Of a stretch of DNA of 64,000 bases, positions 1,673 to 30,888 are shown one piece after another (the stretch's first letter is position 1; each line of letters starts with the position of its first letter). The notes beneath the pieces are model-generated. The model made no database searches. It was not told the origin of the DNA and was given only the letters and a program-made list of their open reading frames with translations. Both the position numbers and the translations under genes were made by a program. Location: assembly GCA_035691205.1 (NCBI GenBank), contig DASSJM010000017.1, positions 9,481 through 73,480 of the forward strand. Direction: 5' to 3'. This stretch comes from Actinomycetota bacterium (GTDB lineage: Bacteria > Actinomycetota > UBA4738 > HRBIN12).

Positions 1673-1758
1673 CGTCTCGGTGGGCGCCGCCTACGCCGCC
1701 CGGTGTCGCTCCCTCCCCGGCCATGGGGTTCGGTTCGAGGTTAGGCTAGCCGACCGAG

Positions 1759-2928: not shown

Positions 2929-2944
2929 GTCTGGTTCCTCCCGG

Positions 2945-3745: not shown

Positions 3746-3881
3746 CAGGGTCCCTCCTCTTCCCAGATGGGCTCCTCGATCTCGAGATCGTCCGGCGGAT
3801 CCTCGTGCCGATCGGGGTCCCATGCCTCCAGGTCCCACTTGCCCGGATCGATCCGCTCGCGCGGTCGTCGGTCGTCGGTCC

Positions 3882-6461: not shown

Positions 6462-6650
6462 ATGACACGAGAGCTGGAGTGGCCGCTGTTCGAGAAGGCG
6501 ATCGAGATCACGGCATCCGCCCTTCGCGGCGGGATGGGTGGGGAGAACAGCCAGCCCCCGAGCTATGCGGGCGATGTGTTCCGCGCCGTGTGGGACTCGC
6601 TCAAGGAGGCGGCTCAGGAGCTGCCGGAGCGTGGCAAGGCCGGCTTCTAG
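6462..6650 (+). CDS. Small hypothetical protein (62 aa)
   Basis: MTRELEWPLFEKAIEITASALRGGMGGENSQPPSYAGDVFRAVWDSLKEAAQELPERGKAGF. Balanced composition. gcggagg SD upstream. Divergent from the cassette. Confidence 0.4.
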   Translation: MTRELEWPLFEKAIEITASALRGGMGGENSQPPSYAGDVFRAVWDSLKEAAQELPERGKAGF

Positions 6651-7015
6651 TCCACGCTGCTGGACAGGTCGCGGAGCGAGACGATCCCCACCAGCACCCC
6701 GTCATCGGTGACGGGCAGGTGACGGAACCCACGCTCGAGCATGAGGTCCCGCGCGACGGCCACGTCCGTGCCGGCCTCGACGGTGACGGGATCGTGGGTC
6801 ATCCAGTCGGCGACCGGGTGGTGCGCGGCGTCGAAGTCGCTCGCCAGCGCACGCAGGATGTCTCGTTCGGTGAAGATCCCGGCCGCAGCGCCGCCGTCGA
6901 GCACGAGTGCCGAGCCCACGCCGCGCCCGCCCATCAGGGTGGCCGCCTCGGCGACCGTCGCGCCGGGCTCGACCGTCACGAGATCCCTGCTCATGATGTC
7001 GCGGACCGTGGCCAT
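6647..7015 (-). CDS. CBS domain-containing protein
   Basis: 122 aa. MATVRDIMSRDLVTVEPGATVAEA...GIVSLRDL is a typical CBS pair. Confidence 0.85.
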   Translation of the reverse strand: MATVRDIMSRDLVTVEPGATVAEAATLMGGRGVGSALVLDGGAAAGIFTERDILRALASDFDAAHHPVADWMTHDPVTVEAGTDVAVARDLMLERGFRHLPVTDDGVLVGIVSLRDLSSSVD

Positions 7016-7910: not shown

Positions 7911-7929
7911 GTCGGGCGAGCCCCGCCGC

Positions 7930-8964
7930 TCAGAGGGCGCGGAGGGCGGGAGCGACCTCGGCCGCGAACAGCGAGGTGGCACGGGCGGCGGTCGCCAGGT
8001 CCATCCCCGGGTAGTGCAGCCGGACGACCAGGTGGAGCTCGTCGCGATCCTCGTTCCGGGTCACCAAGGGGCCGAGCGCCGCGACCACTTCCTCGGGGGG
8101 CCCGGCGACGGTCCAGCGGCGCGCCTCCTCCTCCGCCAGCGTCGGGGCGAGCGCGTCGTGCTCCGGCGTGTCGTGGCCCGCGTCCCAGGCCGTGTACGCC
8201 CCGAGCTGCTGGGTCAGACCCTCCCGGAGCAGCTTCCAGTGGTCGCCCTCCGTCCATGGGAACGCGTTCTGCGTGAGCGCGACCGCGAGCGTCCGGGGAT
8301 CGCGCCCAGCGCTCCTCGCGCCCTCGTCCAGGACCGAGAGGGCGTGCCGGAGGTCATCGGGCTCCGTCGCGTCGGTGATGTACCCGTCGGCCAGGCGGCC
8401 GGCCCGCCGGAGCCCGCGATCGTCGTAGCCCCCCAGGAAGATCCTCGGGCCGCCCGGCCGCGCCGGGGTCGGGGTCACGCGCACGCGATCGAAGCGCATC
8501 GTGCGGCCCTCGAACGAGAACCGGCGGCCGGTCCACGCGCGTCGGAGCACCTCGATCGTGTCCGTCGTGCGCCGGGCGCGCTCGCGCATCGAGGCGCCGA
8601 ACATCCGGAACTCCTCCTCGCGCCATCCGAGTCCCAGCCCGAGGATCAGGCGGCCGTTCGAGAGCTGGTCCACGACCGCCGCGTCCTCGGCGAGGCGGAG
8701 CGGGTCGTGCAGCGGCGTGAGCAGGATGCCGGTGCCGAGCTCGATCCGCTCGGTCACGGCCGCGAAGGCCGCGAGCATCGGGAGCAGGGAGGGCAGGTAG
8801 CCGTCGGACGAGCCGTGATGCTCGCTCACCCAGGCCGAGTCGAACCCGAGCGACTCGGCCAGCCGTACCAGCTCGAGCGTCTCGCCGTACTCCTGCGCGA
8901 GCGTCCGGCTCGAGCCCGCGGGGATCTGGCCCGTGAACAGCCCGATGCCGATCCGGAGCGTCAT
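7930..8964 (-). CDS. LLM-class (luciferase-like) F420-dependent oxidoreductase
   Basis: Start MTLRIGIGLFTGQIP at ATG 8964. LLM motifs AESLGFDSAWVSEHH and NGRLILGLGLGW. The ORF-track 92-aa N-terminal extension was rejected. Confidence 0.85.
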   Translation of the reverse strand: MTLRIGIGLFTGQIPAGSSRTLAQEYGETLELVRLAESLGFDSAWVSEHHGSSDGYLPSLLPMLAAFAAVTERIELGTGILLTPLHDPLRLAEDAAVVDQLSNGRLILGLGLGWREEEFRMFGASMRERARRTTDTIEVLRRAWTGRRFSFEGRTMRFDRVRVTPTPARPGGPRIFLGGYDDRGLRRAGRLADGYITDATEPDDLRHALSVLDEGARSAGRDPRTLAVALTQNAFPWTEGDHWKLLREGLTQQLGAYTAWDAGHDTPEHDALAPTLAEEEARRWTVAGPPEEVVAALGPLVTRNEDRDELHLVVRLHYPGMDLATAARATSLFAAEVAPALRAL

Positions 8965-9400: not shown

Positions 9401-10162
9401 CTAGCCGACCGCGAGCAGGGCGGCCATCACGGCGAACCCGCCCGCGATGCCGAAGAACTGCACGACGCCGACGCGGATGTCGGATCCCTTGTGGAGCTCG
9501 GGGATCAGGTCGGCCCCGGCGATGTAGATGAACGCGCCGGCCGAGATCGCGAGCAGGGGCCGCTCGATCCCGCCGAGCGCGCCGTCCAGCAGGAGCGCGA
9601 TCGTCGCCCCGAGGACCGCCGTCATCGCGGAGGCGACGTTGTAGACGAGCGCCCGCTTGGGCGCGAGCCCCGCGTGGACCAGCACGCCGAGGTCGCCCAT
9701 CTCCTGGGGGATCTCGTGCAGCGCCACGGCGATCGTCGTGGCGATGCCGAGCGACGGGCTCACCAGGAACGAGCCGGCGATGATCGCGCCGTCCACGAAG
9801 TTGTGCACCCCGTCGCCGACCAGGTTCGTGAGCACCACCGGCTGCACGTGGTGGTGCTCGGGGGCGTTCAGCTGGTGATGGAGGTGGATGAACTTCTCGA
9901 GCACGTAGAGGAACAGGATCGACAGCGCCATCACCCAGGACAGCTCGACCGTGATGCCCCCGCTCTCGGCGAGCTCGGGCAGGAGGTGGAACAGCGTGTC
10001 GCCGAGGAGGGCGCCGACCGCGAAGCTCACCAGGATCGGAACGATCCTGCGGAGCAGCCCTTCTTGGACGACCAGAGCCACGATGCCCACGAACGCGATC
10101 GCGCTCACCGCGAGGACGGCGAGGATCGTCGCGCCCCAGACCGATGCGGAGGCGGCCAGCAC
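9401..10162 (-). CDS. ZIP family metal (zinc) transporter (ZupT-like)
   Basis: 253 aa, about 8 TM. His-rich loop HLHHQLNAPEHHHVQ. HNFVDGAIIAGSF and HEIPQEMGD are ZIP signature motifs. Confidence 0.9.
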   Translation of the reverse strand: MLAASASVWGATILAVLAVSAIAFVGIVALVVQEGLLRRIVPILVSFAVGALLGDTLFHLLPELAESGGITVELSWVMALSILFLYVLEKFIHLHHQLNAPEHHHVQPVVLTNLVGDGVHNFVDGAIIAGSFLVSPSLGIATTIAVALHEIPQEMGDLGVLVHAGLAPKRALVYNVASAMTAVLGATIALLLDGALGGIERPLLAISAGAFIYIAGADLIPELHKGSDIRVGVVQFFGIAGGFAVMAALLAVG

Positions 10163-10197
10163 GGGCCGAGGCTACACGACCGCTCCCTGCGTCCCGG

Positions 10198-10959
10198 TCA
10201 AGGCGTCAGGTACGGGCGGTCCGGGCGGGCGACCTCGACGACCTGCTGCGCGTCCACGATGACCTCGCGCCCGAGCGGGAAGACCGAGCCGGTGACCTCC
10301 ACCCAGTCGTCGGCCTCGAACTCGCCCGGCCGGACGTTCACCACCCGGACCTGCGCGACCGTCGCATCCGCGGCGCAGCAGGACACGACGTAGCGGGTGA
10401 GCAGGATCTCGTCCGCGGGGGTGTCGTCGCGCCGGACCACGAAGCCCACGAACGTGACCGTCTCGCCGGCCCTCGCCGCAAGCGCCCGCTCCCCCTCCGG
10501 CGTGGTCTGCGCCGCGGCCACGTCGACCAGCGTGAGCTCGCCCTCGCCGATCTCGGTCGCCGAGGCGGCGAACCCCGCACCGGAGAACCCCGAGCGCTTC
10601 CCGGCGGAGAACGTGCCCAGGGTCGCCGGCGGCGCCGCGAGCACCAGGACCACCGGAACCACCATCAGGGCCATGATCCACGCCTCGCGGGCCCGCAGCG
10701 GCTCGGGCGCGGTGGTCCGAGCCGAGACGATCCGACCGATCGTCGACGCCGTGAGCAGGACGGCCGCCACCGGGACCACCCAGTCGGTCCGCGTCGACAG
10801 GTACAGCGCATCGCGCCCGGTGAGCCACAGGAACCAGAACAGGAAGGCCCACGCGCCGAGGACCGCCGCGCCCGCCACCCGGGCCGGGCTCCACCTGCGG
10901 GGCCGGCCCACCTCGGCGAGCCCGCGCGCCGTTCGCCGGGCCATGACGGCGTCGCTCAT
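10198..10959 (-). CDS. TIGR03943/DUF1980 family protein, partner subunit of a two-component membrane permease
   Basis: Start MSDAVMARR at ATG 10959, ATGA-overlapping the upstream permease stop. N-terminal TM helices. C-terminal Cys pair RYVVSCCAADA typical of this family. The rest of the 866-aa ORF-track entry is a shadow. Confidence 0.8.
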   Translation of the reverse strand: MSDAVMARRTARGLAEVGRPRRWSPARVAGAAVLGAWAFLFWFLWLTGRDALYLSTRTDWVVPVAAVLLTASTIGRIVSARTTAPEPLRAREAWIMALMVVPVVLVLAAPPATLGTFSAGKRSGFSGAGFAASATEIGEGELTLVDVAAAQTTPEGERALAARAGETVTFVGFVVRRDDTPADEILLTRYVVSCCAADATVAQVRVVNVRPGEFEADDWVEVTGSVFPLGREVIVDAQQVVEVARPDRPYLTP

Positions 10960-11960
10960 CCGAACACCACCCCGATCCACAGCGCGCCGACGAGCGTGGC
11001 GGCCGCCGCGGTGAGGACCACGATGCGGACGAACCCGCGCCGGAACGTCCCCGCGTACAGCGCGAGCAGCTTGGCGTCGACCATCGGCCCGAAGACCAGG
11101 AACCCGAGCTGCGCCGAGACGCCGAACGGCGCGAACGAGGCCGCGACGAACGCGTCGGACTCCGAGCAGAGCGAGAGGGCTGCGGCGAGGGCCATCATCG
11201 CGACGACCGACAGGATCGGGAGGTCGGCGACGCTCGAGAGCCACGAGGCGGGCAGGAACGTCTGGATCGCGGCGGCGATCGTCGCGCCCAGCAGCAGGTA
11301 GCGGCCCATGAACAGGAAGTCGTTGCCCAGGTGCACGAAGAACCGGCGCCACCTGGCCTCGGGGCGGCCGAGCTCGAGCAGGTGCTCGTGCGACTCCTCC
11401 GGGTTCGGCTTGAGGAGCTCCTCGGTGGTCCGCGAGCCGAGCACCCACCCCACCGCGATCGCGACGAGGACCCCGAGCGCGAAGCGCCCGCCGACCACGG
11501 TCCACATCGTTGCGCGTCCTCGGAACGCGACGAACGTCGATGCGATCACGACCGGGTTGATCACGGGCGCCGCGAGCATGAAGGTCACGGCGGCCGACGG
11601 CATGAGCCCTCGCTGCATCAGCCGGCGTGCCACCGGCACCGAGCCGCACTCGCAGATCGGGAACGCGAGGCCGGCGAGCGCGGCCGCGGGGAGCTGGAGC
11701 GGGCGCGGGAGGCGCCCGAGACGCTCGAGCGTCCCGATCGGCACGAAGACCTCGACGAGCGCGGCGGCGAGCGCGCCGAGCATCACGAAGGGGAGCGCCT
11801 GGATCAGCAGCGACCCGAAGATCACGAAGAAGGTCCGGACCCAGTCGACGCGGCCGGGGTCGAGCAGGCGAAGGACGAGGGCGGCCGCGATCAGCATCCC
11901 CGCAACGGCGAGCGCGGTTCGAGCGGTGGCGGTCCGGTCGTGCCCGGGCGCGATCTCCAT
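10956..11960 (-). CDS. DUF318/YraQ-like permease (two-component membrane permease subunit)
   Basis: 334 aa multi-TM. Conserved ICECGSVP motif. Confidence 0.85.
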   Translation of the reverse strand: MEIAPGHDRTATARTALAVAGMLIAAALVLRLLDPGRVDWVRTFFVIFGSLLIQALPFVMLGALAAALVEVFVPIGTLERLGRLPRPLQLPAAALAGLAFPICECGSVPVARRLMQRGLMPSAAVTFMLAAPVINPVVIASTFVAFRGRATMWTVVGGRFALGVLVAIAVGWVLGSRTTEELLKPNPEESHEHLLELGRPEARWRRFFVHLGNDFLFMGRYLLLGATIAAAIQTFLPASWLSSVADLPILSVVAMMALAAALSLCSESDAFVAASFAPFGVSAQLGFLVFGPMVDAKLLALYAGTFRRGFVRIVVLTAAAATLVGALWIGVVFG

Positions 11961-13292
11961 CTAGCAGTACCTCGCGAACGAGACGGCGAAGCCCTGGAAG
12001 GCGTCGGCCACCATCCTCCCACCCTCGGGATCCTCGGCCGCCAGGAGCGCGTCCACCGCGGCCTGCCCCGTGACCTGTTCCGCTCGGAGCACGTCCTGGT
12101 CGAGGAAGAGCCCGCCCGGGACCACCGCCTCGACCGCGGGAGCCGCTCCCGGGATCGAGGCCTCGACGGCGTCCACGGCGAACGCATCCGGCACCGCGGT
12201 CCTCCCGCGCTCCCAGGTGCCGGTGCCGGCAACCACCACGAGCGTCGCATCGCCCGTCGCGGCCTGCGCCTCGGTCACGATGCGGCGGGTGAGCCGGTCC
12301 ATGGCTCGGATGCCGCCGTCGAGCACCACCCCGAGGACGTCCGGCACGTCGTCGGCCCCGTACCCCGTCGACAGGTGCACCTCCACGGCGAGGGGGGCGG
12401 CCGCGGCGTCGCCGATCACCGTGTCCACGGGGTCCTGGTCCGGGTACCAGCCGCCGCCGACCAGGCCGCGGTCGCGTGGCGCGGTCTCGACGAGTCCCAC
12501 CAGCGTCCGAGGGTGGGCCCGTTCCAGGTCGTCGGCGAGCGACGCGATCACCGGGACGGGGGAGCCCTCGGCGAAGGCCTCGGCGACGCGCCCCTCGTCG
12601 CTGCGGACGAAGGAGCCCGTGATGCCGTGCTGGGAGGGGAGGCCGCCCGTGCCGATCGTCGTGAGCGCCGCCGTGGGGTCCAGCGGCAGGGATCCGACCT
12701 CGGCCTGCAGGGTTCCCGCCCCCCGTTCCAGCAGTGAGGCGAGGAAGGCCCACGCGCCGGGGCGGGCCTCGAGCTCGGCGGAGCCTGCGCCCTTCCACGC
12801 GATCAGCAGGATCAGCCGCGGCGGACGACCCGATGCCGAGGCGACGCCGGGGACGGCGGTGCCCGAGCGAACGTCGGGGAAGGGGCGTTGGAACCCGAGC
12901 GCGTCGCTCACGGTCGGGGCGACGCGGTCGAGGGTGACCCCGTCGGAGATCGGCGTGCCCGAGGCGATCCCCGCGCCGACGAACACCAGCGGGACCCGGT
13001 CGTCCGCGGCCGTGCCCACCGACGGCCAGGGGAGGCGAAGCTCGTCCACCTGCGTGTACACGGGCGTGCTCGCGCCGACTGCGAGGACGTCGGGGGAGCG
13101 CCCCTCCCGGTAGCCGTTCGCGATGGCCGTCCGCAGCGTCTCGGGGAGCGGGCAGAAGGGCACGCGGGCTGCGCTCGGCTCGGCCTCACATGACCGCCCC
13201 ACGCAGAGCACCTGGAGGATGCCGGCGGGGATCCCGATCGCGGCGAGCGCGACGAGGAGCACGAGGAGCCGACGACCGGTCACCGACCTCAC
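11961..13292 (-). CDS. Signal-anchored extracytoplasmic protein, divergent alkaline-phosphatase-superfamily-like paralog of the three downstream lipoproteins
   Basis: N-terminal MRSVTGRRLLVLLVALAAIGIPAGIL. Shares the TIGTGGLPSQHGITG block (TIGTGxxPxxHGI) with the NPP-type lipoproteins. Other catalytic blocks are not recognisable. Confidence 0.65.
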   Translation of the reverse strand: MRSVTGRRLLVLLVALAAIGIPAGILQVLCVGRSCEAEPSAARVPFCPLPETLRTAIANGYREGRSPDVLAVGASTPVYTQVDELRLPWPSVGTAADDRVPLVFVGAGIASGTPISDGVTLDRVAPTVSDALGFQRPFPDVRSGTAVPGVASASGRPPRLILLIAWKGAGSAELEARPGAWAFLASLLERGAGTLQAEVGSLPLDPTAALTTIGTGGLPSQHGITGSFVRSDEGRVAEAFAEGSPVPVIASLADDLERAHPRTLVGLVETAPRDRGLVGGGWYPDQDPVDTVIGDAAAAPLAVEVHLSTGYGADDVPDVLGVVLDGGIRAMDRLTRRIVTEAQAATGDATLVVVAGTGTWERGRTAVPDAFAVDAVEASIPGAAPAVEAVVPGGLFLDQDVLRAEQVTGQAAVDALLAAEDPEGGRMVADAFQGFAVSFARYC

Positions 13293-13355
13293 GCTACCGC
13301 GCGCGGATCGGTGGGTTGTCGTTCACGGCGACGGCGTGGTTGCTTATCCGGGTCC

Positions 13356-15071
13356 ATGTCCCCCCGACGCTGGTTCGCGCTGCTCGCCGTCCTGCTCGTG
13401 CTGGGCGCAGCATGCACCGACGGAGGCTCGAGCGACGTCGCGTCGGGCCCGTCCCCGACCGGGAGGGAGACGGGGACCGCCGCCACGACCTCCGAGCCCT
13501 CGGAGGCAGCCGAGCCGGTCGCCGAGGGCGCGATGGCCGACCTCGCCTGCTCGTTGCCTCACGAGTGGCTCCTGAGGACCTGGCGCGGGAACCGCGACGA
13601 TCGCAGCGCCGAGCTGCAGATCCTGCCGATCGAGCCGAACTTCGTGGGCTCGGGGCTCCCGCACGTGGGGCCCTGGGACTACGCGCAGGACATCCCGATG
13701 TTCTGGTACGGGCCCGGCCACATCGCGCCCGCCGGCGTCGTGAACCGGCCGGTCACCCTCGCCGGCGTCGCCCCGACGCAGGCCGAGCTCCTGGGCTTCT
13801 CCTTCCGCACCCGGGACGGCACCCCGATGCGCGAGGCCGTGGCCGGGAACGCGACCCCGCCCCGGCTCGTCGTGACGATGATCTGGGACGCGGCCGGCCG
13901 CAACGTGCTCGATCGGTGGCCCGACGACTGGCCGTACCTCGCATCGCTGATCGAGAGCGGGGCCTGGTACGAGCGCGCGACGGTGGGCACGAGCCCGACG
14001 AGCACCGCGCAGACGCACGCGACGATCGGCACCGGCACGTTCCCCGACGACCACGGCATCGTGGCGCACCGGATGCGCATCGGCGAGGTGCTGTCCACGC
14101 CGTGGGCCCAGGGCCCCGCGTACCTGATCGACCCGACGCTGGCCGATCTGTACGACGTGGCCCACGGCAACGAGCCGGTGGTCGGCGAGCTGGGGACCGT
14201 GAGTATCCACCTCGGGATGCTCGGTCACGGCTCGATGTGGGGCGGGGGCGACGAGGACATCGCGGTGATCCGCGAGAAGGTCGGGGCCGAGACGCTCGGC
14301 GAGGAGGGGTTCGAGTGGAACCTCACCCCGCTGCTCCAGCCCTACTACCGGTTCCCGGACTACATCAACGAGGTGGGCGGGTTCGAGGAGGACGTGCGGG
14401 AGGTCGACGCAGCCGACGGGCAGCTGGACGGGAAGTGGCGCGAGAACGACATCGAGGCGCTGTTGCAGGGGTTCGACACGCCGGCGCGGATCCCGTACCA
14501 GACGAGGGTGCTGAAGGAGATGATCTCGCGCGAGGGCTTCGGCGCGGACGACGTCCCCGACCTGTTGTTCGTGAACTACAAGATGATCGACTACATCAGC
14601 CACGTGTGGACCGTGAACAGCCCCGAGATGCAGGACGCCGTGCGGGCCCAGGACGAGGCGCTCGAGGACCTGGTCACGTTCCTGGACCGGGAGGTCGGGG
14701 AGGGCGAGTGGGTGTTCGCGCTCACCGCCGATCACGGCTCGATCCCCGACCCCGACCTGACCGGCGCGTTCCAGATCTCGGCCACCCCGATCGTGAACGG
14801 CATCAACGCGACCTTCGACACCGACGGGGATGGCGCCAAGCTGGTAGAGCTGGTCCAGCCGACGCAGATCTTCGTGAACGAGCGCGAGCTCCGGCAGGAC
14901 GGCCACACGCTCGAGGAGCTCGCCGACTGGATCATGGGGTTGACGAAGGCGGACACGGCTCAGCCGGGCGTCGTCGTCCCGGCCGAGGAGGCCGACGACC
15001 TCGTGTTCCAGGCGGCCTTCCCCTCGGCGATCATGAACGACCTCGCATGCCTGCCGGAGGCACGGGGGTGA
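13356..15071 (+). CDS. Alkaline-phosphatase-superfamily lipoprotein, nucleotide pyrophosphatase/phosphodiesterase-like (paralog 1)
   Basis: Lipobox LLVLGAAC. LVVTMIWDAAG. ATVGTSPTSTAQTHATIGTGTFPDDHGIVAH (NPP catalytic-Thr and metal-site blocks). ALTADHGS. C-terminal LACLPEARG. Start at internal ATG 13356. Confidence 0.85.
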   Translation: MSPRRWFALLAVLLVLGAACTDGGSSDVASGPSPTGRETGTAATTSEPSEAAEPVAEGAMADLACSLPHEWLLRTWRGNRDDRSAELQILPIEPNFVGSGLPHVGPWDYAQDIPMFWYGPGHIAPAGVVNRPVTLAGVAPTQAELLGFSFRTRDGTPMREAVAGNATPPRLVVTMIWDAAGRNVLDRWPDDWPYLASLIESGAWYERATVGTSPTSTAQTHATIGTGTFPDDHGIVAHRMRIGEVLSTPWAQGPAYLIDPTLADLYDVAHGNEPVVGELGTVSIHLGMLGHGSMWGGGDEDIAVIREKVGAETLGEEGFEWNLTPLLQPYYRFPDYINEVGGFEEDVREVDAADGQLDGKWRENDIEALLQGFDTPARIPYQTRVLKEMISREGFGADDVPDLLFVNYKMIDYISHVWTVNSPEMQDAVRAQDEALEDLVTFLDREVGEGEWVFALTADHGSIPDPDLTGAFQISATPIVNGINATFDTDGDGAKLVELVQPTQIFVNERELRQDGHTLEELADWIMGLTKADTAQPGVVVPAEEADDLVFQAAFPSAIMNDLACLPEARG

Positions 15072-16759
15072 GGTTGGCGGCGCCGCTGCTGGCGCTCGGT
15101 CTGCTCGCCGCCGCCTGCACCTCCGATGCCACGGAATCACCGTCGGCGACGGGGGACGCGGTCGCGACGGGCTCGACGGGCCCGACGGGTGGAGGGGAGA
15201 TCGCCCCGCCGGCCCCCGGGGAGCTCGCCGACGCGGCGTGCGCGATCCCCCACGAGCAGCTCCTCCGCGTCTGGCGTGGGACCGATCCCGAGCGCTCGGG
15301 CCAGATCGTGTTCGTCCCGGCCGAGCCGAACTTCGTGGGCACCAACTTCCCGCATTCGGGGCCGTGGGACTACCTTCAGGACGTGCCGCTGTTCTGGTAC
15401 GGCCCGGGCGTCGTCCCCGCGCTCGGTCGCGTAGACACCCCCGCGACGATCGCGGACATCGCTCCGACGCAGGCGCGGCTGCTGGACTTCGACTTCGAGG
15501 CACCCGACGGTCGGGCGCTGGACGAGATCCCGCCCCCGAAGACGCCCCCCCGTCTCATCGTCACGCTGGTGTGGGACGCGGGCGGCATCGGTGTGCTCGA
15601 CGCGTTCCCCGACGACTGGCCGGTGCTCGGCTCCCTGATCGAGGACGGCGTCTGGTACGAGGACGCGAGCGTCGGCTCGAGCCCGTCGATCACGCCGGCG
15701 ACGCACGCCACGATCGGCGCGGGAGCTTTCCCGCTGCACACGGGGCAGACCGACGCGGAGTTCCGGATCGGCGACGAGCTGGTCCGCGCCGGCGCGCTCG
15801 GGCCGGTGCTCATGATGGAGCCGACGCTCGGCGATCTGTACGACCGCGCGATGGACAACGAGCCCCTCGTCGGCGCCCTCGCGAGCGTTACGTGGCACCT
15901 GAACATGGCGAGCCACGGGGGGCTGTGGGGCGGCGGCGACAAGGACATCGCGGTGCTGCGCGTCCCAGCGGAGGCCGACAACGAGGGCGCCGAGGGCACC
16001 GTCTGGAACCTCCAGGGCCGGTACCTGCCGTTCTACGAGTTCCCCGAGTACGTCAACGACCTGCCGCCGCTGTCCTCGTACACGGAGGAGGTCGACCGGG
16101 AGGACGGCGCGCTCGACGGCCGCTGGCGGGACAACTCGATCGAGCAGTACGAGGAGGGCTGGGCTACGCCGGCCCGCATCCCGTACCAGGGCCGGATGGT
16201 CGAGGAGGTGATCGCCCGAGAGGGGTTCGGCGACGACGACGTGCCGGACCTGCTGTTCGTGAACTTCAAGGCGATCGACCACGTGAGCCACATCTGGAGC
16301 GTGAACAGCCCCGAGATGGCGGACACCCTCCGTTGGCAGGACCGCGACCTCGAGAGTTTCGTGGGGTTCCTCGATCGCGAGGTCGGGCGCGGTCGATGGG
16401 TGTTGGTCCTGACCGCCGACCACGGGGCGCAGTACGACCCGGCCGTCTCCGGCGCCTTCCAGGTGACCCCCCGTGAGCTCGAGGACGACCTGAACGCCGC
16501 GTTCCCCTCGGAGACCGGCGGGTCGGTCTTCCTCGCCGTGCGCACGAGCCAGATCTACGTGAACGAGGACACGATGCGCGCGAGCGGGTACTCGCTGGAG
16601 CAGATCGCGCGGTTCGTCCTCGGGTACACGAAGGGGCAGGGCCATCCCGAGGGCCCCGAGGCCGTCCCCGGGGAGGAGCGCGACGACCGCGTGTTCGCCG
16701 CCGCGCTCCCGATCCGCCAGCTGGACCGCCTGGAGTGCCTCCCGGAGGCTCGCGGATGA
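15047..16759 (+). CDS. Alkaline-phosphatase-superfamily lipoprotein (paralog 2)
   Basis: Lipobox LLAAAC. LIVTLVWDAGG. VGSSPSITPATHATIGAGAFPLHTGQ. LTADHGAQ. C-terminal LECLPEARG. Start is ATG 15047 or GTG 15068; the GTG overlaps the stop of paralog 1 (GTGA). Confidence 0.85.
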   Translation: MPAGGTGVRLAAPLLALGLLAAACTSDATESPSATGDAVATGSTGPTGGGEIAPPAPGELADAACAIPHEQLLRVWRGTDPERSGQIVFVPAEPNFVGTNFPHSGPWDYLQDVPLFWYGPGVVPALGRVDTPATIADIAPTQARLLDFDFEAPDGRALDEIPPPKTPPRLIVTLVWDAGGIGVLDAFPDDWPVLGSLIEDGVWYEDASVGSSPSITPATHATIGAGAFPLHTGQTDAEFRIGDELVRAGALGPVLMMEPTLGDLYDRAMDNEPLVGALASVTWHLNMASHGGLWGGGDKDIAVLRVPAEADNEGAEGTVWNLQGRYLPFYEFPEYVNDLPPLSSYTEEVDREDGALDGRWRDNSIEQYEEGWATPARIPYQGRMVEEVIAREGFGDDDVPDLLFVNFKAIDHVSHIWSVNSPEMADTLRWQDRDLESFVGFLDREVGRGRWVLVLTADHGAQYDPAVSGAFQVTPRELEDDLNAAFPSETGGSVFLAVRTSQIYVNEDTMRASGYSLEQIARFVLGYTKGQGHPEGPEAVPGEERDDRVFAAALPIRQLDRLECLPEARG

Positions 16760-18417
16760 GTCGGCGCCTGGCCGCCGCGCTGCTCGCGCTCGGTCTGCTG
16801 GGGGCGTCCTGCATCGCCCCGGACGCCGAGCAGGGGACGGCCGGCGGGGTCACGGGCGACCGGGCGTCGCTGAAGCGGTTGATCCGTCGTGCGTGCGCGG
16901 AGGTGCCGCACGACGCGCTGCTGCGCACGTGGCGGGGCACGCGCCTGGACCGTAGCGGCGACATCCAGATCATCCCCTTCGAGCCCGACTTCGTGAACGG
17001 CGGGCTCACCCACGCCACGCCGTTCGACCACACGCAGGAGGTGCCGCTCCTGCTGTTCGGGTCCGGGATCCGCCCCGGCGTCTACCCGGAGCCGGTCACG
17101 CTGGCGGACGTCGCGCCGACGCTCGGCGCGGTGCTCGACTTCCCGTTCGAGACGCCGGACGGTCACGCGCAGCTACAGGCCTTGTTGCCGGAGGACCGGC
17201 GCGAGCCTCCGCGACTGGTGGTCACGCTGGTCTGGGATTCGGCGGGCGACAACGTGCTGGAGCGGTGGCCCGAGGCCTGGCCGACCCTGCGGGCGATGGC
17301 CGAGGAGGGAGCGTGGTTCACCGACGCGCAGGTCGGCGCGTCGCCCTCGAACACGCCGACCGGCCATGCCACGATCGGGACGGGCAGGTTCCCCAATCAC
17401 AACGGGTTCGTCGACGAGTACATCCGGGTGAACGGGATGCTCCAGAAGCCCAACGAGAACGGGCCGGGGTTCCTGCTCGACCCCACCCTCGCCGACCTGT
17501 ACGACCGCGCGATGGGCAACGAGCCGAAGGTGGCAGCGATCGCCACGCTCGCGGCTCACGTCATGATGATGGGCCACGGCTCGCAGTGGGTCGGCGGCGA
17601 CCGAGACATCGCGGTCACCCGCGAGAACGAGTCCGGTCCCACGGCCGGCGCCGAGAGCACCTCGTGGAACCTCACCAGCGACATGTCGTCCTTCTACGTC
17701 CTGCCCGCGTACGCGAACGAGCTCGCGCCACTGGAGGACTACCTGGACGAGGTCGACCGCGCGGACGGCGCGCGGGACGGGATGTGGCGCGAGCACGCGT
17801 TCGCGCAGTACGCGGAGGGGTTCGACACACCGGCCAGGACGCCGTACCAGCAAGCGCTCGTCGAGGAGGTGATGCGGCGCGAGGAGCTCGGCGCCGACCG
17901 GGTTCCGGACCTCCTGTTCGTGAACTACAAGGCGATCGACACGATCGGGCACCTGTTCAGCGCCGACGGCATCGAGATGTCCGACGCGGTCCGCACGCAG
18001 GACGACGCCCTCGCCTCGTTCGTTGCGTTCCTGGATGAGACGGTCGGCCGCGGCCGGTGGACGATGGCCGTCGTGGCCGACCACGGCACCCAGGACGACC
18101 CCCGGGTCTCGGGCGCGTTCTCGATCGACATCCGCAAGCTCGAGGAGGGGCTCGCCGCCCGGTTCGACGACGACGGCGACGACGCCGTGCTGGTCAAGAA
18201 GGTGCGGCCCACCCAGATCTGGCTGAACCACGACGAGCTCGAGGACAACGGCCTGAAGCTCGCGGACATCACCGGCTGGCTCTTCCGGCTCAGCCAGGCG
18301 GAGGTCGTGAAGCCGGGGCGCACGCCGCCCGAGCCCCAGGCGCCGGTGTTCGCGGGCGTCCTGCCGTCTCGTATCCTTTCCGGACTCCCGTGCCTGCCCG
18401 AGGCCAGCGCGGGCTGA
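16756..18417 (+). CDS. Alkaline-phosphatase-superfamily lipoprotein (paralog 3)
   Basis: ATG 16756 overlaps the stop of paralog 2 (ATGA). Lipobox LLGASC. LVVTLVWDSAG. VGASPSNTPTGHATIGTGRFPNHNGF. VVADHGTQ. C-terminal LPCLPEASAG. Confidence 0.85.
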   Translation: MSRRLAAALLALGLLGASCIAPDAEQGTAGGVTGDRASLKRLIRRACAEVPHDALLRTWRGTRLDRSGDIQIIPFEPDFVNGGLTHATPFDHTQEVPLLLFGSGIRPGVYPEPVTLADVAPTLGAVLDFPFETPDGHAQLQALLPEDRREPPRLVVTLVWDSAGDNVLERWPEAWPTLRAMAEEGAWFTDAQVGASPSNTPTGHATIGTGRFPNHNGFVDEYIRVNGMLQKPNENGPGFLLDPTLADLYDRAMGNEPKVAAIATLAAHVMMMGHGSQWVGGDRDIAVTRENESGPTAGAESTSWNLTSDMSSFYVLPAYANELAPLEDYLDEVDRADGARDGMWREHAFAQYAEGFDTPARTPYQQALVEEVMRREELGADRVPDLLFVNYKAIDTIGHLFSADGIEMSDAVRTQDDALASFVAFLDETVGRGRWTMAVVADHGTQDDPRVSGAFSIDIRKLEEGLAARFDDDGDDAVLVKKVRPTQIWLNHDELEDNGLKLADITGWLFRLSQAEVVKPGRTPPEPQAPVFAGVLPSRILSGLPCLPEASAG

Positions 18418-18440: not shown

Positions 18441-21400
18441 ATGGCGCTCACGAAGGATCGTCCCGGTCAGGTCGTCGACGTGCCCGAGCCGGGCAGGCGC
18501 GGCCGGCCGTCCCACCTGCTGGTCCTGTTCATCGCGATCGGGCTCCTGCTGCTGGCGTTCGGCTGGACGTTCCTGCAGGACCCGTCGATCAGCGCGCCGA
18601 CCCGAGACCCGGCCTGGTACACGTGGCGCTCGAACCTGCTGATGAACGACGACCCCGGGCTCGTGGCCGGGGACTGGGGTCCGTTCCACATGTTCGGCGG
18701 CGGCTACCGGGTCGCGGTGCCGCTGTACGGCTCGATCCTGCAGCGGGTCGCGGGGATCGACCTGTACACGTTCAGCGCGTTCATGATGATCGGCCTCCCG
18801 GTGCTGAGCGGCCTGGCCCTCGGCGCGTTCTCCTGGCGCAGGCATCGAGATCCGCTCCTGTTCCTCCTGGTGATGCTCTCGACGGCGGCGCTGTTCATGA
18901 CCACGCCGTACGTCGGGTACCTGGACAACATCACCGTCCTGTACTTCCTGTCGCTCACGCTGGCGTTCTTCGAACCCGGGCGAACGTCGTGGGGCTCGCG
19001 CGTCGCGCTGTTCCTGTTGGGGATCGCGGCGGCGTACACGCACCCGACCACGTGCGTGATCTTCGGCATGTCCCTCATGGGCGTGTTCGGCCTGCGACTG
19101 CTCACGAGCCGGTTCCACCTCGGACCGCCGCTCCGGGAGCTCGGGCCGTCGCTGATGTCGGTCGGGTTCGGGATGATCGCTGGTCTGGGGAGCTGGCTCG
19201 TCTCGCCGTGGGGCGTCGCCGGCTCGCTCGCCGACGCCGCCCTCCCGCCGCCCTACACGAAGGAGGTCTTCCTCAAGCGCCTGGACGGCTGGGTCGACTC
19301 CCTGCAGCCGATGATCATCGTGCCGCTCGTGCTGCTCGCGATCGGCTGGACGGTCTACCGCGCCCGCAAGGACCGCAAGCCCTCCGACGGGTTCGCGACG
19401 ATCTCCGCGATGATGCTCCTCCCGTTCCTCGGGGTCTTCGGCTTCGTCGTCGCCACCTACCCGTACTACCGCTTCATGAACGCGACCGTCGGCCTGTTCC
19501 CGCTCGCGGGGCTCGGCGCGTACGTCGCGATCCGGTGGCTGTGGAAACGAGACGGCGCGGCCAAGATCGCCGGCGTGATCGCCTCGCTCGTGATCGTGGC
19601 CTCCTTCGGGTACATCTGGGTGAACGGACGCGAGGCCGCGCAGTGGGCCGACGCGGACAACCAGTGGATCGACCAGCCCACCCGGACCGCGCTCGAGGCG
19701 ACCCGCGCGATCGTCGAGGGCGAGTCCGAGCAGAGCCCGATCGTCTTCGTCGTGAACTACCAGGACGCCTATCAGGCCTACGGCTGGTCGAAGACGTTCA
19801 CCAACGTCTCGCGGACCGGCCTGCCCGGCGACGCCGTGAAGCGCTCGATGACCTACTTCGGGAGCGTCGAGGACTTCGTGGCCGATCGCCCGACCCAGCT
19901 CACCGACGAGACCTACAACAAGATGGCGCGCGGGTTCCATCGCGAGCTCGGCGAGCTGCGGCAGGAGTACACGGGAGCGCCGATCGTGTTCCTCGTCCGC
20001 CAGTTCAACGAGGGCACGGGCAACGAGGAGCTCCTGGACGCCGGGGGTGACGACCTCATCATCCTGGGCGACGACATCGCGGTCGTGACCGGCGAGGGGC
20101 TGACCACCCCTTCGACGGCCTCGCTCGAGGCCGCCCGCGCGGCCGAGGCCGAGGTGGCCGCGTTCTACGCCGACCACCCGGGGATCTTCGGGAACCTCGG
20201 GCACACCCTATGGGTGCTCGTGGCGCTCGGGCTGCTGCTGATCGTGCCGGGCGCGCTGGCGGCGCGGTTCTTCGACCTGGACGACGCGTGGCTGAAGGTC
20301 GCGCTGATCCCGGGGATCTCGATCACCCTGACGGTGCTGTCCGGGATCGCGGTCGTGGCGGTGACCCGAGCGCCGTTCGGCGTCGCGCACGGGTGGGCCT
20401 CGCTCGGGCTGGCCACGGCGGTCGCCGCCGCGCTCCGCTTCGGCTCGGCGCCGATCCTGCGGGTGCTGAACGCGTTCGGCAGGTTCTTCAACAAGATGTT
20501 CTCGGTCTTCTCCAACGCGGACTTCGCGTCGCTGATGGGGGTGCAGTTCCTGGCGATGGCGGCCGACGGCGTGATCCGCGGCTCGATCGCCAAGTCGATC
20601 GCGTTCGGCGGTCAGGAGGGCTTCGACGTCACCACCGTCCCCGACGCGAACTACCTGCTGAAGGTGGTGCTGGCGCTCTACATCCCGTACACGTTCATCA
20701 GCCCGTTCATCGGCGTGTTCATCGACCGGTTCGAGCGGCGTCGCGTGCTCTCGCTCTCCAACGTCGTGACGGCGGTGGTGGTCGCGGTCGTGGCGGCGGG
20801 GGCCCTGATCCCGCTCGGCGACGACACGTCCGAGGGCAAGATCGGCATCACCGCCGCGCTGATCCTCGGCATGCTCGTGATGCAGGCCTGCGTGCGGATC
20901 GTGCTCGCGGTCAAGTCGGCCGCGATGCCCGACGTGCTGGCGGGCAGGGACCTGATGCAGGGCAACGGCCTCTCGCAGGCCGGCGGGGCGCTGTTCCAGG
21001 TCCTGGGCGCCGGGATCGCGTTCGGGTTCGGCGCGGTGCTCCCCGCGTGGCTGGTCGTGGTCGGCGGGGCGGGCGTGCTGATCGCCGCCTCGGTCGTGGC
21101 TCGGCGGATCCGCCGGATGGAGGCCGCCCCCCACGAGATGAGCTTCGGCCAGGAGGCCAAGCGCATCCTGAGCGACATCGTGGCCGGTCTGCGCGAGGTG
21201 AAGGACCGACCGGCGGGCGCGCTGGGCCTGACCTCGTTCCAGATGATCCGGTACCAGTTCTGGGGCTTCACCCTGTTCGTCTTCGGCCTCTACGCGAAGA
21301 ACCTGGTCGAGGGCGGGGAGGCCGACACGATGGCCCTGGGCCTCGTGGGAGGGCTCGGGTTCCTGGGCGGCGCGCTTGGCCTCGTCCTCGCGCAGCGCTG

Positions 21401-21818
21401 GAAGGACACGATCCCGCCGATCCGACTGCTGCTCGGCTCGATGGCGCTCCTGGGCGCCGGCACGGTCGTGTTCGGTTGGTCGATCACGATGGTGGGGTTC
21501 GCGGCCCTGCTGTTCGTCGGGTTCTTCGCCTTCTTCATGGCGAAGATCTCCGCCGACACGATCATGCAGCAGGCCATGCCGGATGATTTCCGAGGACGCG
21601 CGTTCGCGCTGTTCGACATCGCCTACAACCTCGGCTTCATCGTGCCGGCGATCATCCTGTCGTTCGTGTGGGTCGAGAACGATCCCGGCCAGGTGCGGAC
21701 GATCCTGCTCGTGTCCGGGGCGGTGTTCCTGGTGCTCACCGGGTTCGTGTGGCGCTGGTCCAGGTCGATCCGAGGCCAGTTCGCCCCGCAGGACGACCTC
21801 GTGGATGCGGAGGCCTAG
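18441..21818 (+). CDS. Large (1125 aa) polytopic membrane protein: N-terminal multi-TM domain (possibly GT-C-like), a central soluble domain and a C-terminal MFS transporter domain
   Basis: Start MALTKDRPGQ at ATG 18441, after ggggaaagcggagag. About 12 TM helices in the first 450 aa, with an acidic first loop (LLMNDDPGLVAGDWGPFH). The C-terminal about 520 aa has 12 predicted TM helices and the MFS signature FIDRFERRRVL. Confidence 0.85.
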   Translation: MALTKDRPGQVVDVPEPGRRGRPSHLLVLFIAIGLLLLAFGWTFLQDPSISAPTRDPAWYTWRSNLLMNDDPGLVAGDWGPFHMFGGGYRVAVPLYGSILQRVAGIDLYTFSAFMMIGLPVLSGLALGAFSWRRHRDPLLFLLVMLSTAALFMTTPYVGYLDNITVLYFLSLTLAFFEPGRTSWGSRVALFLLGIAAAYTHPTTCVIFGMSLMGVFGLRLLTSRFHLGPPLRELGPSLMSVGFGMIAGLGSWLVSPWGVAGSLADAALPPPYTKEVFLKRLDGWVDSLQPMIIVPLVLLAIGWTVYRARKDRKPSDGFATISAMMLLPFLGVFGFVVATYPYYRFMNATVGLFPLAGLGAYVAIRWLWKRDGAAKIAGVIASLVIVASFGYIWVNGREAAQWADADNQWIDQPTRTALEATRAIVEGESEQSPIVFVVNYQDAYQAYGWSKTFTNVSRTGLPGDAVKRSMTYFGSVEDFVADRPTQLTDETYNKMARGFHRELGELRQEYTGAPIVFLVRQFNEGTGNEELLDAGGDDLIILGDDIAVVTGEGLTTPSTASLEAARAAEAEVAAFYADHPGIFGNLGHTLWVLVALGLLLIVPGALAARFFDLDDAWLKVALIPGISITLTVLSGIAVVAVTRAPFGVAHGWASLGLATAVAAALRFGSAPILRVLNAFGRFFNKMFSVFSNADFASLMGVQFLAMAADGVIRGSIAKSIAFGGQEGFDVTTVPDANYLLKVVLALYIPYTFISPFIGVFIDRFERRRVLSLSNVVTAVVVAVVAAGALIPLGDDTSEGKIGITAALILGMLVMQACVRIVLAVKSAAMPDVLAGRDLMQGNGLSQAGGALFQVLGAGIAFGFGAVLPAWLVVVGGAGVLIAASVVARRIRRMEAAPHEMSFGQEAKRILSDIVAGLREVKDRPAGALGLTSFQMIRYQFWGFTLFVFGLYAKNLVEGGEADTMALGLVGGLGFLGGALGLVLAQRWKDTIPPIRLLLGSMALLGAGTVVFGWSITMVGFAALLFVGFFAFFMAKISADTIMQQAMPDDFRGRAFALFDIAYNLGFIVPAIILSFVWVENDPGQVRTILLVSGAVFLVLTGFVWRWSRSIRGQFAPQDDLVDAEA

Positions 21819-29433: not shown

Positions 29434-29493
29434 CGCGGCCGAGGCTAGCACCCGTGCACGACCCGACCGTGGAGCGGGTACCGTGGGTACGCC

Positions 29494-30888
29494 ATGCCGA
29501 CCGAACGCTTCACCGCCCTGGACGCCTCGTTCCTGTACCTGGAGAGGCCCGCGATGCACATGCATGTGGCCGGGCTCTCGGTGTTCGATCCCTCGACGCG
29601 CCCGCGCGGGCCGCTGCGGTTCGAGGACGTGGCGAACGTCTTCGCCACGCGGTTGCACCTCGCGCCGCGCCTGCGACAGAAGGTCAAGACCGTGCCCTTC
29701 GGGCTCGGGTTGCCGGTCTGGGTCGACGACGCGGCGTTCGACCTTGGTTTCCACGTCCGCAGGGCGGCGCTGCCCTCGCCGGGCGGCCGACGCGAGCTCG
29801 CCGAGCAGGTCCAGCGCGTGCTCTCGCGCCCGCTCGATCGCTCCAAGCCCCTGTGGGAGCTCTACGTGATCGAGGGCCTCGAGGACGGCCACGTGGCCAC
29901 GCTCATGAAGGTCCACCACGCGATGATCGACGGCCTGTCGGGGATGCACCTCACGGCCGCGATGTTCGACCTGTCGCGCGAGCCGCGCGACGAACCGCCG
30001 CCGCCAGCGTGGGAGCCGGCGCCGGAACCCACGCCCCAGGACCTGCTGCGCGAGGCGTCCGAGGACCTCGTGACGCACCCCGCGCAGGCCCTCGCCCAGG
30101 CGTTCGAGGCGGTCCGGCGGACGCCCGCGCTCGCGGCCCTGGGTCTCGGCGCGGTGCTCTCGGGGTTCCGCAGCATCCTGGACATGGGCGCCCGTCCGGC
30201 CTCGCCGCTCGATGTGCGGATCGGACCCAACCGCCGGTTCGCGATGACCGATGCCCCGCTGCAGCGCTTCAAGGACATCAAGGACTCGCTCGGAGGTACG
30301 GTGAACGACGTCGTCCTGACGGTCGTCGGCGGGGCCCTGCACCGACTGCTGAAGGAGCGGAAGGAGCCGACCAAGGGGCGCACGCTCAGGGTCATGGTGC
30401 CGGTGTCGGTGCGCTCGGGCGGCGACGGTCCGCTCGGCAACCGCGTCGCGCCGGCGTTCATCGACCTGCCGGTCGGTCCCCTCGGGCCCAAGCGCCGGCT
30501 CGCCCTCGTCCGTGAGGGGACGCGCCACCTCAAGGAGTCGATGATGGCCATGAGCGCGGACACGATCATCGGACTGGGCGCGTACGCGCCGGGCGGGCTC
30601 CTCGCCGGGGCGGCGCGGTTGGCCAGCCGGGGGCCGTGGTTCAACCTCACGGTCTCCAACATCCCGGGTCCGCCCCAGCCCCTGTACATGGCCGGCGCCC
30701 GGCTGGTGGCCCAGTATCCGGCGATCCCGCTGGGTGAGAACTCGGCGCTATCGATCGCGTGTACCTCGCTCGGCGGGACGATGGCGTTCGGGCTGACCGG
30801 CGACTGGGACGGCATCCCGGACCTGGAGCGCCTCGCGTTCGCCCTGGACGAGTCCCTCGCCGAGATCTCGAAGGCCGCCGGCCTCTAG
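29494..30888 (+). CDS. Wax ester synthase/diacylglycerol acyltransferase (WS/DGAT)
   Basis: HHAMIDGLSG (HHxxxDG active site). 464 aa. Confidence 0.9.
   Translation: MPTERFTALDASFLYLERPAMHMHVAGLSVFDPSTRPRGPLRFEDVANVFATRLHLAPRLRQKVKTVPFGLGLPVWVDDAAFDLGFHVRRAALPSPGGRRELAEQVQRVLSRPLDRSKPLWELYVIEGLEDGHVATLMKVHHAMIDGLSGMHLTAAMFDLSREPRDEPPPPAWEPAPEPTPQDLLREASEDLVTHPAQALAQAFEAVRRTPALAALGLGAVLSGFRSILDMGARPASPLDVRIGPNRRFAMTDAPLQRFKDIKDSLGGTVNDVVLTVVGGALHRLLKERKEPTKGRTLRVMVPVSVRSGGDGPLGNRVAPAFIDLPVGPLGPKRRLALVREGTRHLKESMMAMSADTIIGLGAYAPGGLLAGAARLASRGPWFNLTVSNIPGPPQPLYMAGARLVAQYPAIPLGENSALSIACTSLGGTMAFGLTGDWDGIPDLERLAFALDESLAEISKAAGL

Follow-up and report, generated by a model that had tools for sequence, protein, structure and literature searches.

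A predicted GT-C-like membrane domain fused to a major facilitator superfamily transporter, and its phosphoesterase gene neighbours, in uncultured Actinomycetota

Why should a membrane transporter be fused to a large polytopic domain, and why should its gene follow genes for secreted phosphoesterases? The question is raised by a stretch of 64,000 nucleotides from an Actinomycetota bacterium (GCA_035691205.1, contig DASSJM010000017.1, positions 9,481 to 73,480; hereafter the window), in which one gene encodes a 1125-aa protein made of an N-terminal domain (ND) and a C-terminal major facilitator superfamily (MFS) transporter. A sequence-only reading had described the ND as polytopic and perhaps GT-C-like, with a soluble middle part, and had taken the protein and three neighbouring lipoproteins as a hint of a dedicated locus for the processing and transport of an envelope glycolipid, lipid or polymer. 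The results given below point to a two-in-one flippase and GT-C transferase that would serve an extracytoplasmic glycoconjugate pathway also involving phosphoesterases, a proposal which we regard as evenly poised between right and wrong.

An unbroken fusion conserved among uncultured Actinomycetota

The fusion gene (Table 1) translates without a stop over 1125 codons, as had been claimed, from an ATG preceded by GGAGAG; 23 nt separate it from the upstream stop at 18417, so that it does begin just past the third lipoprotein gene on the same strand. Its G+C content at third (GC3, 0.91) and second (GC2, 0.49) codon positions is the same as that of real genes in this 71% G+C window. The identical protein (P0001) is present in NCBI from an Actinomycetota metagenome-assembled genome (MAG), with "MFS transporter" as its sole name, and it has more than 120 full-length homologues.

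A profile of the ND, searched against 1.84 billion representative proteins, retrieved 372 relatives at E < 1e-3, among which are a few clusters of fused proteins (about 1120-1210 aa) and many stand-alone proteins of 650-735 aa, the latter including the three C-terminal helices described below. When one genome per GTDB species was scanned, the family turned up in at least 231 genomes, all of uncultured Actinomycetota; to judge by the prefixes of the MAG names (of the SMAG, soil and Microflora Danica types), the hosts appear to come largely from soil. The genome-locus counts given here refer to the best 80 loci of these 231 genomes, 73 of which have open reading frames (ORFs) that reach the stop. 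An unbroken fusion ORF of at least 1080 aa is present in 68 of the 73 species-level loci, and the five exceptions lie in assemblies with other genes also frame-shifted. A metagenome scan seeded with stand-alone members added 56 fused and 14 stand-alone loci; several stand-alone homologues lie on contigs too short for gene context. Distant fused members, at 34-39% identity, keep the architecture. The ND is thus an independent family that occurs mostly fused but also unfused. Since the fusion is unbroken in most loci and kept in distant members, it is neither a split pair of genes nor confined to the window; together with the adjacent lipoprotein genes it recurs across dozens of species-level genomes, in which identity falls as low as about 34-50%. 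Neither the literature searched nor the Pfam/NCBIfam models describe a GT-C-MFS fusion or the ND family.

The N-terminal domain, the connecting helix and the transporter

Two AlphaFold2 (AF2) models were obtained, one of the full-length protein (31 sequences; pLDDT 82.1, pTM 0.79) and one of residues 1-680 alone (12-sequence alignment; pLDDT 72.6, pTM 0.75), and they agree on the layout. The high pTM over 1125 residues suggests that the two membrane domains would pack against each other in a defined way. In both models the N-terminal tail is disordered, and the first transmembrane helix (TM1, residues 26-46) is followed by an outer loop 1 with short juxtamembrane-type helices (57-69 and 72-76) ahead of TM2. 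A hydropathy scan and both models concur on a polytopic ND with a soluble part at about residues 400-585, in keeping with the sequence-only reading. This soluble part consists of strands and helices, predicted mostly with a pLDDT of 85-95 in the full-length model, and contains 31 D/E against 14 K/R. Because 13 transmembrane helices precede it, the soluble domain is expected to lie outside the cell, and the three further helices that follow would bring the chain back to the cytoplasm, as the N-terminus of an MFS transporter needs; the charge distribution is consistent with this topology. The three helices are present in unfused members as well, with P603, G604 and P645 invariant and P624 in at least 90% of the sequences.

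Conservation was read from an alignment of 27 diverse ND members with 26-44% identity to the window protein. Across the family, fused and unfused, D56, W62, R90 and D162 are invariant and H201 and R344 occur in at least 90%; D56 stands in the context TRDPAWYTWR, directly ahead of the first loop helix, and D162 in GYLDN. Many Trp, Tyr and Pro residues of the outer face are nearly invariant, and two conserved outer loops, around DAALPPPYT (263-273) and YPYYRF (340-345), fall in the lowest-confidence stretches of the models.

When the ND model was compared with the PDB by Foldseek, the high-probability matches were all GT-C glycosyltransferases: ArnT (5ezm, E 2.7e-4), the C-mannosyltransferase DPY19, STT3 of the human oligosaccharyltransferase (TMq 0.42), AftA, ALG3, EmbA/B and PimE. 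The probability was 1.0 for ArnT, DPY19, STT3 and ALG3, 0.92 for AftA and 0.77 for Emb, and the matches outside GT-C, transporters lower in the list, reached at most 0.23. As the fold matches are to GT-C only and no sequence link to a known family was found, the ND is, in its predicted structure, GT-C-like by fold and not a member of any described GT-C family, which upholds the earlier suggestion at the level of fold.

ArnT, PglB and STT3 share a layout of 13 transmembrane helices and a C-terminal outer domain, and ArnT and PglB have mobile loops, which the conserved low-confidence loops of the ND resemble, by analogy. The likeness to GT-C_A enzymes with a C-terminal outer domain (ArnT, PglB/STT3, DPY19, AftA) extends, as far as the models go, to the cytoplasmic N-terminus, the 13 helices, the outer soluble domain, the short helices and invariant Asp of loop 1, a second conserved Asp after TM3 and the outer loops predicted to be flexible. 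The ND differs from them by three extra transmembrane helices past the soluble domain, by the MFS fusion and by having no detectable sequence similarity, and the TM-scores of the match stay below 0.5. In PimE the catalytic Asp of the GT-C_A type, D58, lies on the first outer loop (PMC12041525), and D56 of the window protein would be in an analogous position, judged by its place in the loop.

The helix that connects the two domains carries the motif FFNxMFSVFSN, of which F682, F683, F687 and F690 are nearly invariant among fused proteins; counting of the predicted helices places it on the cytoplasmic side. The MFS part matches Pfam MFS_1 over residues 742-1068 (E 1.1e-21, 77.6 bits against a cut-off of 33.4 bits) and has 12 helices within 693-1109, with the usual long central loop, in the full-length model, a full set that the hydropathy scan shows as well; the transporter is therefore complete, as had been proposed. 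The signature FIDRFERRRVL, which had been called intact, is found at residues 760-770 and overlaps motif A (G758-x3-D762-R763-x2-R766), whose G758, D762, R763 and R766 are invariant. Further motifs of the subfamily are AFGGxxGFDV, in the TM1-2 loop, and DDFRGRAFALFDIAYN.

Assignment of the MFS domain to a described subfamily gave mostly negative results. Similarity to NCBIfam models is sub-threshold and only DHA3-like and Aas/LplT-like. DHA3/MFS_3 membership is not supported by TIGR00900 (79.9 bits against 319.6) or by EntS (18 against 324), and PF05977 is precomputed for some homologues only. Membership of the LplT type is likewise not supported (NF005291, 22.9 bits against 1349; NF006386, 21.7 against 1221); the Aas-LplT fusion models match the MFS domain weakly, at E about 1e-5, and the protein has no acyltransferase domain. 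Ferroportin, which ranked at the top of the Foldseek list for the full-length model, was rejected as a clue to the substrate, there being no meaningful separation from other MFS matches.

Phosphoesterases, flippases and other genes at the locus

The three genes upstream of the fusion are translationally coupled, and their products fit the earlier description as phosphodiesterase-like lipoproteins. All three match PF01663 (type I phosphodiesterase/nucleotide pyrophosphatase) with 62-92 bits against a cut-off of 23 bits and have Arg-rich signal peptides that end in a lipobox Cys (...LVLGAAC in lipoprotein 1). In alignments they keep the WD, S/T-x3-H, IDxxxH and ADHG motifs, which correspond to the metal-binding Asp/His residues and the Thr/Ser nucleophile. 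They share PF01663 and these motifs with PafA and the nucleotide pyrophosphatase/phosphodiesterase (NPP) enzymes and differ from them, within a length of about 560 aa, by a private insertion, DGxxDGxWR, and by an N-/C-terminal Cys pair; the PafA equivalog NF042991 was reached with 89-111 bits only, against a threshold of 650. The n-regions SPRRWF (13356-13400) and SRRLAA (16756-16800) look like twin-arginine motifs, so that the enzymes may be exported folded, with the metal already bound. A 1189-aa ORF at 13190-16759(+) was rejected as a high-GC artefact; over its first 620 or so codons it runs across lipoprotein gene 1 in another frame, and only its last 563 codons are lipoprotein gene 2.

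In the relatives, NPP-type genes are recurrent neighbours. Among the 51 genome loci whose upstream sequence extends for 6 kb or more, 46 have same-strand NPP-type lipoprotein genes, one to five in number, which usually stop some 30 nt short of the fusion; in the metagenomes, 33 of 39 fused and 6 of 8 stand-alone loci have NPP genes no more than 6 kb away. The distant relative P0163 has three of them and P0137 one. Phosphoesterases of PF04185, the phospholipase C/acid phosphatase family with a fold unrelated to NPP, recur beside fused and stand-alone members alike; the number of phosphoesterase genes varies from 0 to 5, over two unrelated folds.

Other loci bear on the transporter. In three of them the orthologous MFS is a separate gene (L156:1013-2305, L157:4902-6131 and L161:2112-3236), which lies in an NPP-MFS-NPP-ND cluster with an unfused ND. 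These split MFS proteins are about 40% identical to the fused domain and have the private motifs AFGGxxGFDV, IDRxxRxR and DxFRGRAFxLxDIAYN in common with it. That the MFS is split in these loci and fused elsewhere is evidence that the ND and the MFS work together. Locus L157 further includes genes for Wzy_C, Wzx, two sulfotransferases and a sulfatase of PF00884. In a sister branch associated with sulfotransferases (L165:9023-12351, L171, L088/L170 and L091), the genes run in the order divergent sulfotransferase and NPP, unfused ND, Wzy_C (O-antigen ligase/polymerase-like) and Wzx-like MOP flippase, with NPP and sulfatase genes nearby, and the locus looks like one for a sulfated surface polysaccharide. 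The presence of a Wzx-like protein in place of the MFS in this branch lends indirect support to a flippase role of the MFS.

Genes of sugar transfer are also found. Locus L083 encodes two distant ND paralogues (6599-8497 and 2238-4337) with an NAD-epimerase and a DUF2304-GT2 protein between them and PF04185 divergently upstream. GT87-like genes occur in four loci (L064, L139, L146 and L152), either between the lipoprotein and fusion genes or just downstream of the fusion; the one in L064 (6653-7801) encodes a polytopic protein of 382 aa whose similarity to GT87, the polyprenyl-phosphate-mannose-dependent mannosyltransferases, stays below threshold. These contexts agree with the envelope glycolipid/polymer locus that the sequence-only reading had proposed; the function itself we infer. 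That reading had noticed neither the unfused ND family, nor the split and Wzx-substituted arrangements, nor the catalytically dead fourth lipoprotein paralogue described below.

Table 1. Features of the fusion gene and its surroundings, in window coordinates
Feature	Position	Strand	Basis
Fusion gene, 1125 aa, ND (GT-C-like domain family) and MFS transporter	18441..21818	+	Intact ORF and ribosome-binding site
Cytoplasmic N-tail and 13 transmembrane helices, residues 1-399	18441..19637	+	AF2 secondary structure, Foldseek, invariant columns
Acidic alpha/beta soluble domain, residues 400-585, predicted extracytoplasmic	19638..20195	+	AF2 model, charge, odd number of transmembrane helices
Three further transmembrane helices, residues 586-667	20196..20441	+	AF2 models; also in unfused members
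Phe-rich connecting helix, residues 668-691	20442..20513	+	Helix 669-691 in full-length model
MFS domain, 12 transmembrane helices, residues 692-1109	20514..21767	+	Pfam MFS_1, model helices, Foldseek, invariant columns
Lipoprotein 1, alkaline phosphatase (AP)/NPP-superfamily phosphoesterase	13356..15071	+	PF01663 E 7.9e-26; catalytic residues intact
Lipoprotein 2, paralogue; GTG start overlaps gene 1 stop (GTGA)	15068..16759	+	PF01663 E 2.2e-17
Lipoprotein 3, paralogue; ATG overlaps gene 2 stop (ATGA); ends 23 nt before fusion	16756..18417	+	PF01663 E 2.7e-25
Divergent intergenic region, 63 bp	13293-13355		Contains GGGTTGTCGTTC...GTGGTT...TAT
Lipoprotein paralogue, 443 aa, membrane-anchored or secreted	11961..13292	-	About 30% tblastn identity to lipoproteins; alignment
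ArsP_1 (PF03773) permease, CxC motif	10956..11960	-	Pfam E 8.5e-52, synteny
DUF1980 (TIGR03943-type) partner of ArsP_1, SCCAAD motif	10198..10959	-	PF21537 E 4.6e-14
ZIP zinc transporter, beyond the DUF1980 gene	9401-10171	-	

On the other side of the lipoprotein genes, a paralogue of 443 aa has lost every catalytic motif (the metal Asp is replaced by K and DHG by GTG, and the T/H motif of the nucleophile is missing) and is therefore, on the alignment, a probable pseudoenzyme; it gives a weak match to the C-terminal part of PafA and is syntenic in most related loci. With the ArsP_1 and DUF1980 genes it forms a conserved divergent operon; the trio is also found with P0137, its synteny with the fusion gene extends to a 39%-identical relative (L087), and the dead enzyme may act as a binding protein for the ArsP_1 permease. 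Literature searched for the PF03773/DUF1980 permease and zinc yielded nothing specific. Two related loci in which no NPP gene adjoins the fusion have a zinc-uptake operon, ZnuA/ZnuC/ZnuB, immediately upstream of it (L073:3504-7775 and L145:4887-7442), and L073 also has a YibE/F protein and an ORF like the Fur/Zur family there; with the ZIP gene of the window, these loci suggest a link between the module and zinc supply.

The divergent intergenic region is probably a shared promoter and may leave lipoprotein gene 1 with a very short leader. Its motif is kept, as GGGTTGTCGTTCnnGnCGGnGTCGTGTTTCGTATGCG, among close relatives only. No sigma-70-like promoter was found at the locus, no PHO-box or Zur-box pattern in the divergent region, no AT-rich palindrome anywhere near the locus, and no AT-rich site resembling a Zur box in the window.

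Downstream of the fusion lie DinB_2, alpha/beta hydrolase, DUF1684 and AlaX-like genes. Elsewhere in the window are scattered genes of lipid metabolism, namely for an MBOAT O-acyltransferase, a patatin-like phospholipase and a WS/DGAT wax-ester/triacylglycerol synthase (254-1690 (-), 3882-5054 (-) and 29449-30888 (+)), which show no synteny with the fusion gene in relatives, and a selenocysteine tRNA gene (45515-45605 (-), Rfam RF01852, 75 bits), which implies that the organism uses selenoproteins.

Possible roles of the module

Fusions of a translocator with a lipid-handling enzyme have precedents in MprF and LplT-Aas. In extracytoplasmic glycosylation, a lipid-linked donor is flipped and then used by a GT-C enzyme (PMC11127046), and MFS proteins are established as lipid flippases by the example of LtaA (PMC8866510). 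The gene contexts and the predicted fold together fit this logic, with the MFS fused to the transferase as the candidate flippase. On the proposal made at the outset, the MFS domain would move a lipid-linked sugar or glycan, most likely a polyprenyl-phosphate-sugar, from the inner to the outer leaflet, and the ND, joined to it via the short conserved helix, would take the flipped donor laterally. Asp56 on outer loop 1 would be the catalytic base, with Asp162, Arg90, His201 and Arg344 placed around the phosphate-sugar, and the ND would pass the sugar on to an acceptor outside the cytoplasm, kept in place by the soluble domain; a wall or membrane glycopolymer or a lipoglycan is favoured as this acceptor. 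The NPP-type lipoproteins, and the PF04185 enzymes in relatives, would act on the phosphodiester or pyrophosphate part of the same glycoconjugate or of the lipid carrier; this part assigned to the phosphoesterases is the weakest link of the proposal.

Known systems share some of these traits. In MprF and LplT-Aas a lipid translocator is fused to an enzyme that makes or uses the translocated lipid, but there the partner enzyme is cytoplasmic (aminoacyl-phosphatidylglycerol synthase and acyltransferase, respectively), whereas the partner in the window protein is predicted to be an outer-face GT-C-like domain; the window MFS also scores far below the LplT-Aas family cut-offs (22.9 against 1349 bits). 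LtaS is the extracytoplasmic alkaline-phosphatase-superfamily enzyme of the lipoteichoic acid pathway. The pair LtaA-LtaS of S. aureus thus resembles the window module in combining a glycolipid-flipping MFS (LtaA; PMC8866510) with an enzyme of this superfamily for an envelope polymer. However, the window protein has no sequence similarity to LtaA, the S. aureus pair has no GT-C component, and LtaS is a PF00884 enzyme with its own transmembrane anchor, whereas the window enzymes are PF01663 lipoproteins.

The three-component glycosylation systems (GtrA/B/*, ArnC/E-F/T, CsbB-GtcA-YfhO and the GT136 pentofuranose systems; PMC11127046) have in common that a lipid-linked donor, a flippase and a GT-C enzyme are encoded together, and the relative at L083, with its epimerase, DUF2304-GT2 and ND, has the usual GT-C partners of these systems. 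The known flippases of these systems are separate proteins of the GtrA, SMR or MATE type (PMC11127046), whereas the window protein has an MFS as its candidate flippase, in one chain with the putative transferase. Furthermore, the window operon is without a synthase gene and has phosphoesterase genes as its constant partners instead. An outer-face GT-C-type glycosylation module with a built-in MFS and a phosphoesterase partnership, if this is what the locus encodes, is undescribed in the literature and models searched.

Several results weigh against the proposal. The TM-scores of the ND matches are modest, 0.30-0.43, so that the match to GT-C is at the level of fold only, and residues 1-680 fall into no Pfam or NCBIfam family, even at permissive E-values over the 27 members, with sub-threshold matches to DUF6541 in six of them and to PTPS_related in two. 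A comparison of the ND family profile with E. coli ArnT by hhalign was not significant (probability 0.9%), and searches of PDB sequences with the whole protein, the ND profile and the MFS domain returned only a non-significant steryl-sulfatase stretch (E 0.15). In the single stretch aligned by hhalign, D162 was paired with an Asp of ArnT; the match being non-significant, this pairing is not relied on. The GT-C fold is also found in PIGU, which is not a transferase (PMC12041525), and catalysis by the ND is thus not guaranteed by its fold. As for the transporter, the Foldseek search with the full-length model was dominated by generic MFS proteins (TM-score 0.7-0.79, normalised to the MFS targets), which gives no clue to the substrate, and the best family-level likeness is to DHA3-type efflux pumps, carriers of small solutes. 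No gene for a polyprenyl-phosphate-sugar synthase, of the GT2 or UbiA type, is present in the operon or among its window neighbours. Finally, phosphoesterases that vary in number and belong to two unrelated folds are more suggestive of a battery for phosphate scavenging than of one dedicated step in biosynthesis.

The phosphoesterases might be the acceptors rather than co-workers, and this alternative, which we consider unlikely, survives best among the rivals. In such a protein glycosylation system, the ND-MFS protein would flip a polyprenyl-phosphate sugar and glycosylate the co-encoded phosphoesterases on Ser/Thr/Pro-rich linkers after the lipobox Cys, and the glycan would stabilise them or hold them at the cell surface. 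Transferase genes that adjoin the gene of their own acceptor are known, as for pilin with TfpO/PilO. The closest folds of the ND include protein-modifying GT-C enzymes (DPY19 and STT3), the NPP genes are the most persistent neighbours, irrespective of which flippase or sugar genes accompany them, and lipoproteins 1 and 2 and their relatives do have long linkers rich in S/T/P/G; S/T-rich linkers, however, are common in actinobacterial lipoproteins and not specific. Some fused loci, moreover, have no nearby NPP gene, and several loci of the family carry more than one GT-C-type gene, or Wzx with Wzy_C and sulfotransferases, which points to polymer assembly.

Distinctly less probable is that the locus serves phosphate scavenging, with the lipoproteins and PF04185 enzymes cleaving external organophosphates, the MFS importing the product or exporting something needed, and the ND acting as a non-catalytic platform or lipid-binding module. 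The intact catalytic residues of the PafA-/NPP-like lipoproteins, the phospholipase C/acid phosphatase family of the PF04185 neighbours and a paralogue number that varies as in nutrient-scavenging batteries are in its favour, and zinc-uptake genes (ZIP, ZnuABC-Zur) as recurrent neighbours would fit zinc-dependent phosphatases. Some homologues are labelled "sugar phosphate permease" by JGI and there is a weak PgtP match, but the TIGR00881 score of 20 bits, with the cut-off at 408 bits, places the MFS outside the organophosphate:phosphate antiporters. Scavenging also fails to account for a domain of 680 aa in which Asp, Arg, His and aromatic residues of the outer face are strictly conserved, and leaves unexplained why the ND occurs with Wzx, Wzy_C, GT2 and epimerase genes.

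A further reading, to which we give a lower rank still, is that of carrier-lipid recycling. Here the ND would transfer a glycan from a polyprenyl-pyrophosphate donor, in the manner of an oligosaccharyltransferase or ligase, and the lipoproteins would dephosphorylate the released polyprenyl-pyrophosphate or cut the phosphodiester between polymer and carrier. PF01663 enzymes, by the definition of the family, hydrolyse pyrophosphate and phosphodiester bonds, and genes for Wzx and Wzy_C, both of which act on repeat units linked to polyprenyl-pyrophosphate, are present in the variant loci. The known polyprenyl-pyrophosphate phosphatases, however, are integral membrane proteins (BacA, PAP2), and such recycling would not need up to five paralogues. 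Finally, that two genes were wrongly joined by assembly or annotation is refuted for practical purposes: the frame is broken in five of the 73 loci, but in assemblies where further genes are split into shifted pieces, and the unbroken fusion in 68 species-level genomes and 56 metagenome contigs comes from many projects and assemblers.

The proposal of a flippase joined to a GT-C transferase also has a bolder form, which we hold only tentatively, as somewhat improbable. The MFS would then be a true flippase, its cargo being a polyprenyl-phosphate sugar or a lipid-linked glycan, and would be wired directly to the GT-C enzyme by which this cargo is consumed; the NPP lipoproteins, rather than hydrolases for scavenging, would be phosphotransferases or phosphodiesterases of an undescribed envelope polymer pathway, either phosphate-containing (teichoic-acid-like) or phosphate-sparing. 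If this were true, the protein would be the first MFS-type flippase for polyprenyl-phosphate sugars or lipid-linked glycans, and the fusion a Rosetta-stone lead to unidentified flippases of actinobacterial envelope glycolipids, for example of phosphatidylinositol mannoside intermediates.

Some 680 unannotated residues thus lie in a protein of at least 231 species-level genomes that is filed as "MFS transporter". The flipping of lipid-linked sugars is poorly resolved, its flippases being mostly inferred and several actinobacterial ones still to be found, and a new GT-C-fold family with a transporter attached is a concrete candidate for the delivery of lipid-linked sugars to outer-face glycosyltransferases. 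If the ND is catalytic, it would found a new glycosyltransferase family. The linkage to secreted phosphoesterases of two folds suggests, in addition, that envelope glycosylation may be tied to phosphoester chemistry or phosphate economy in abundant uncultured soil Actinomycetota.

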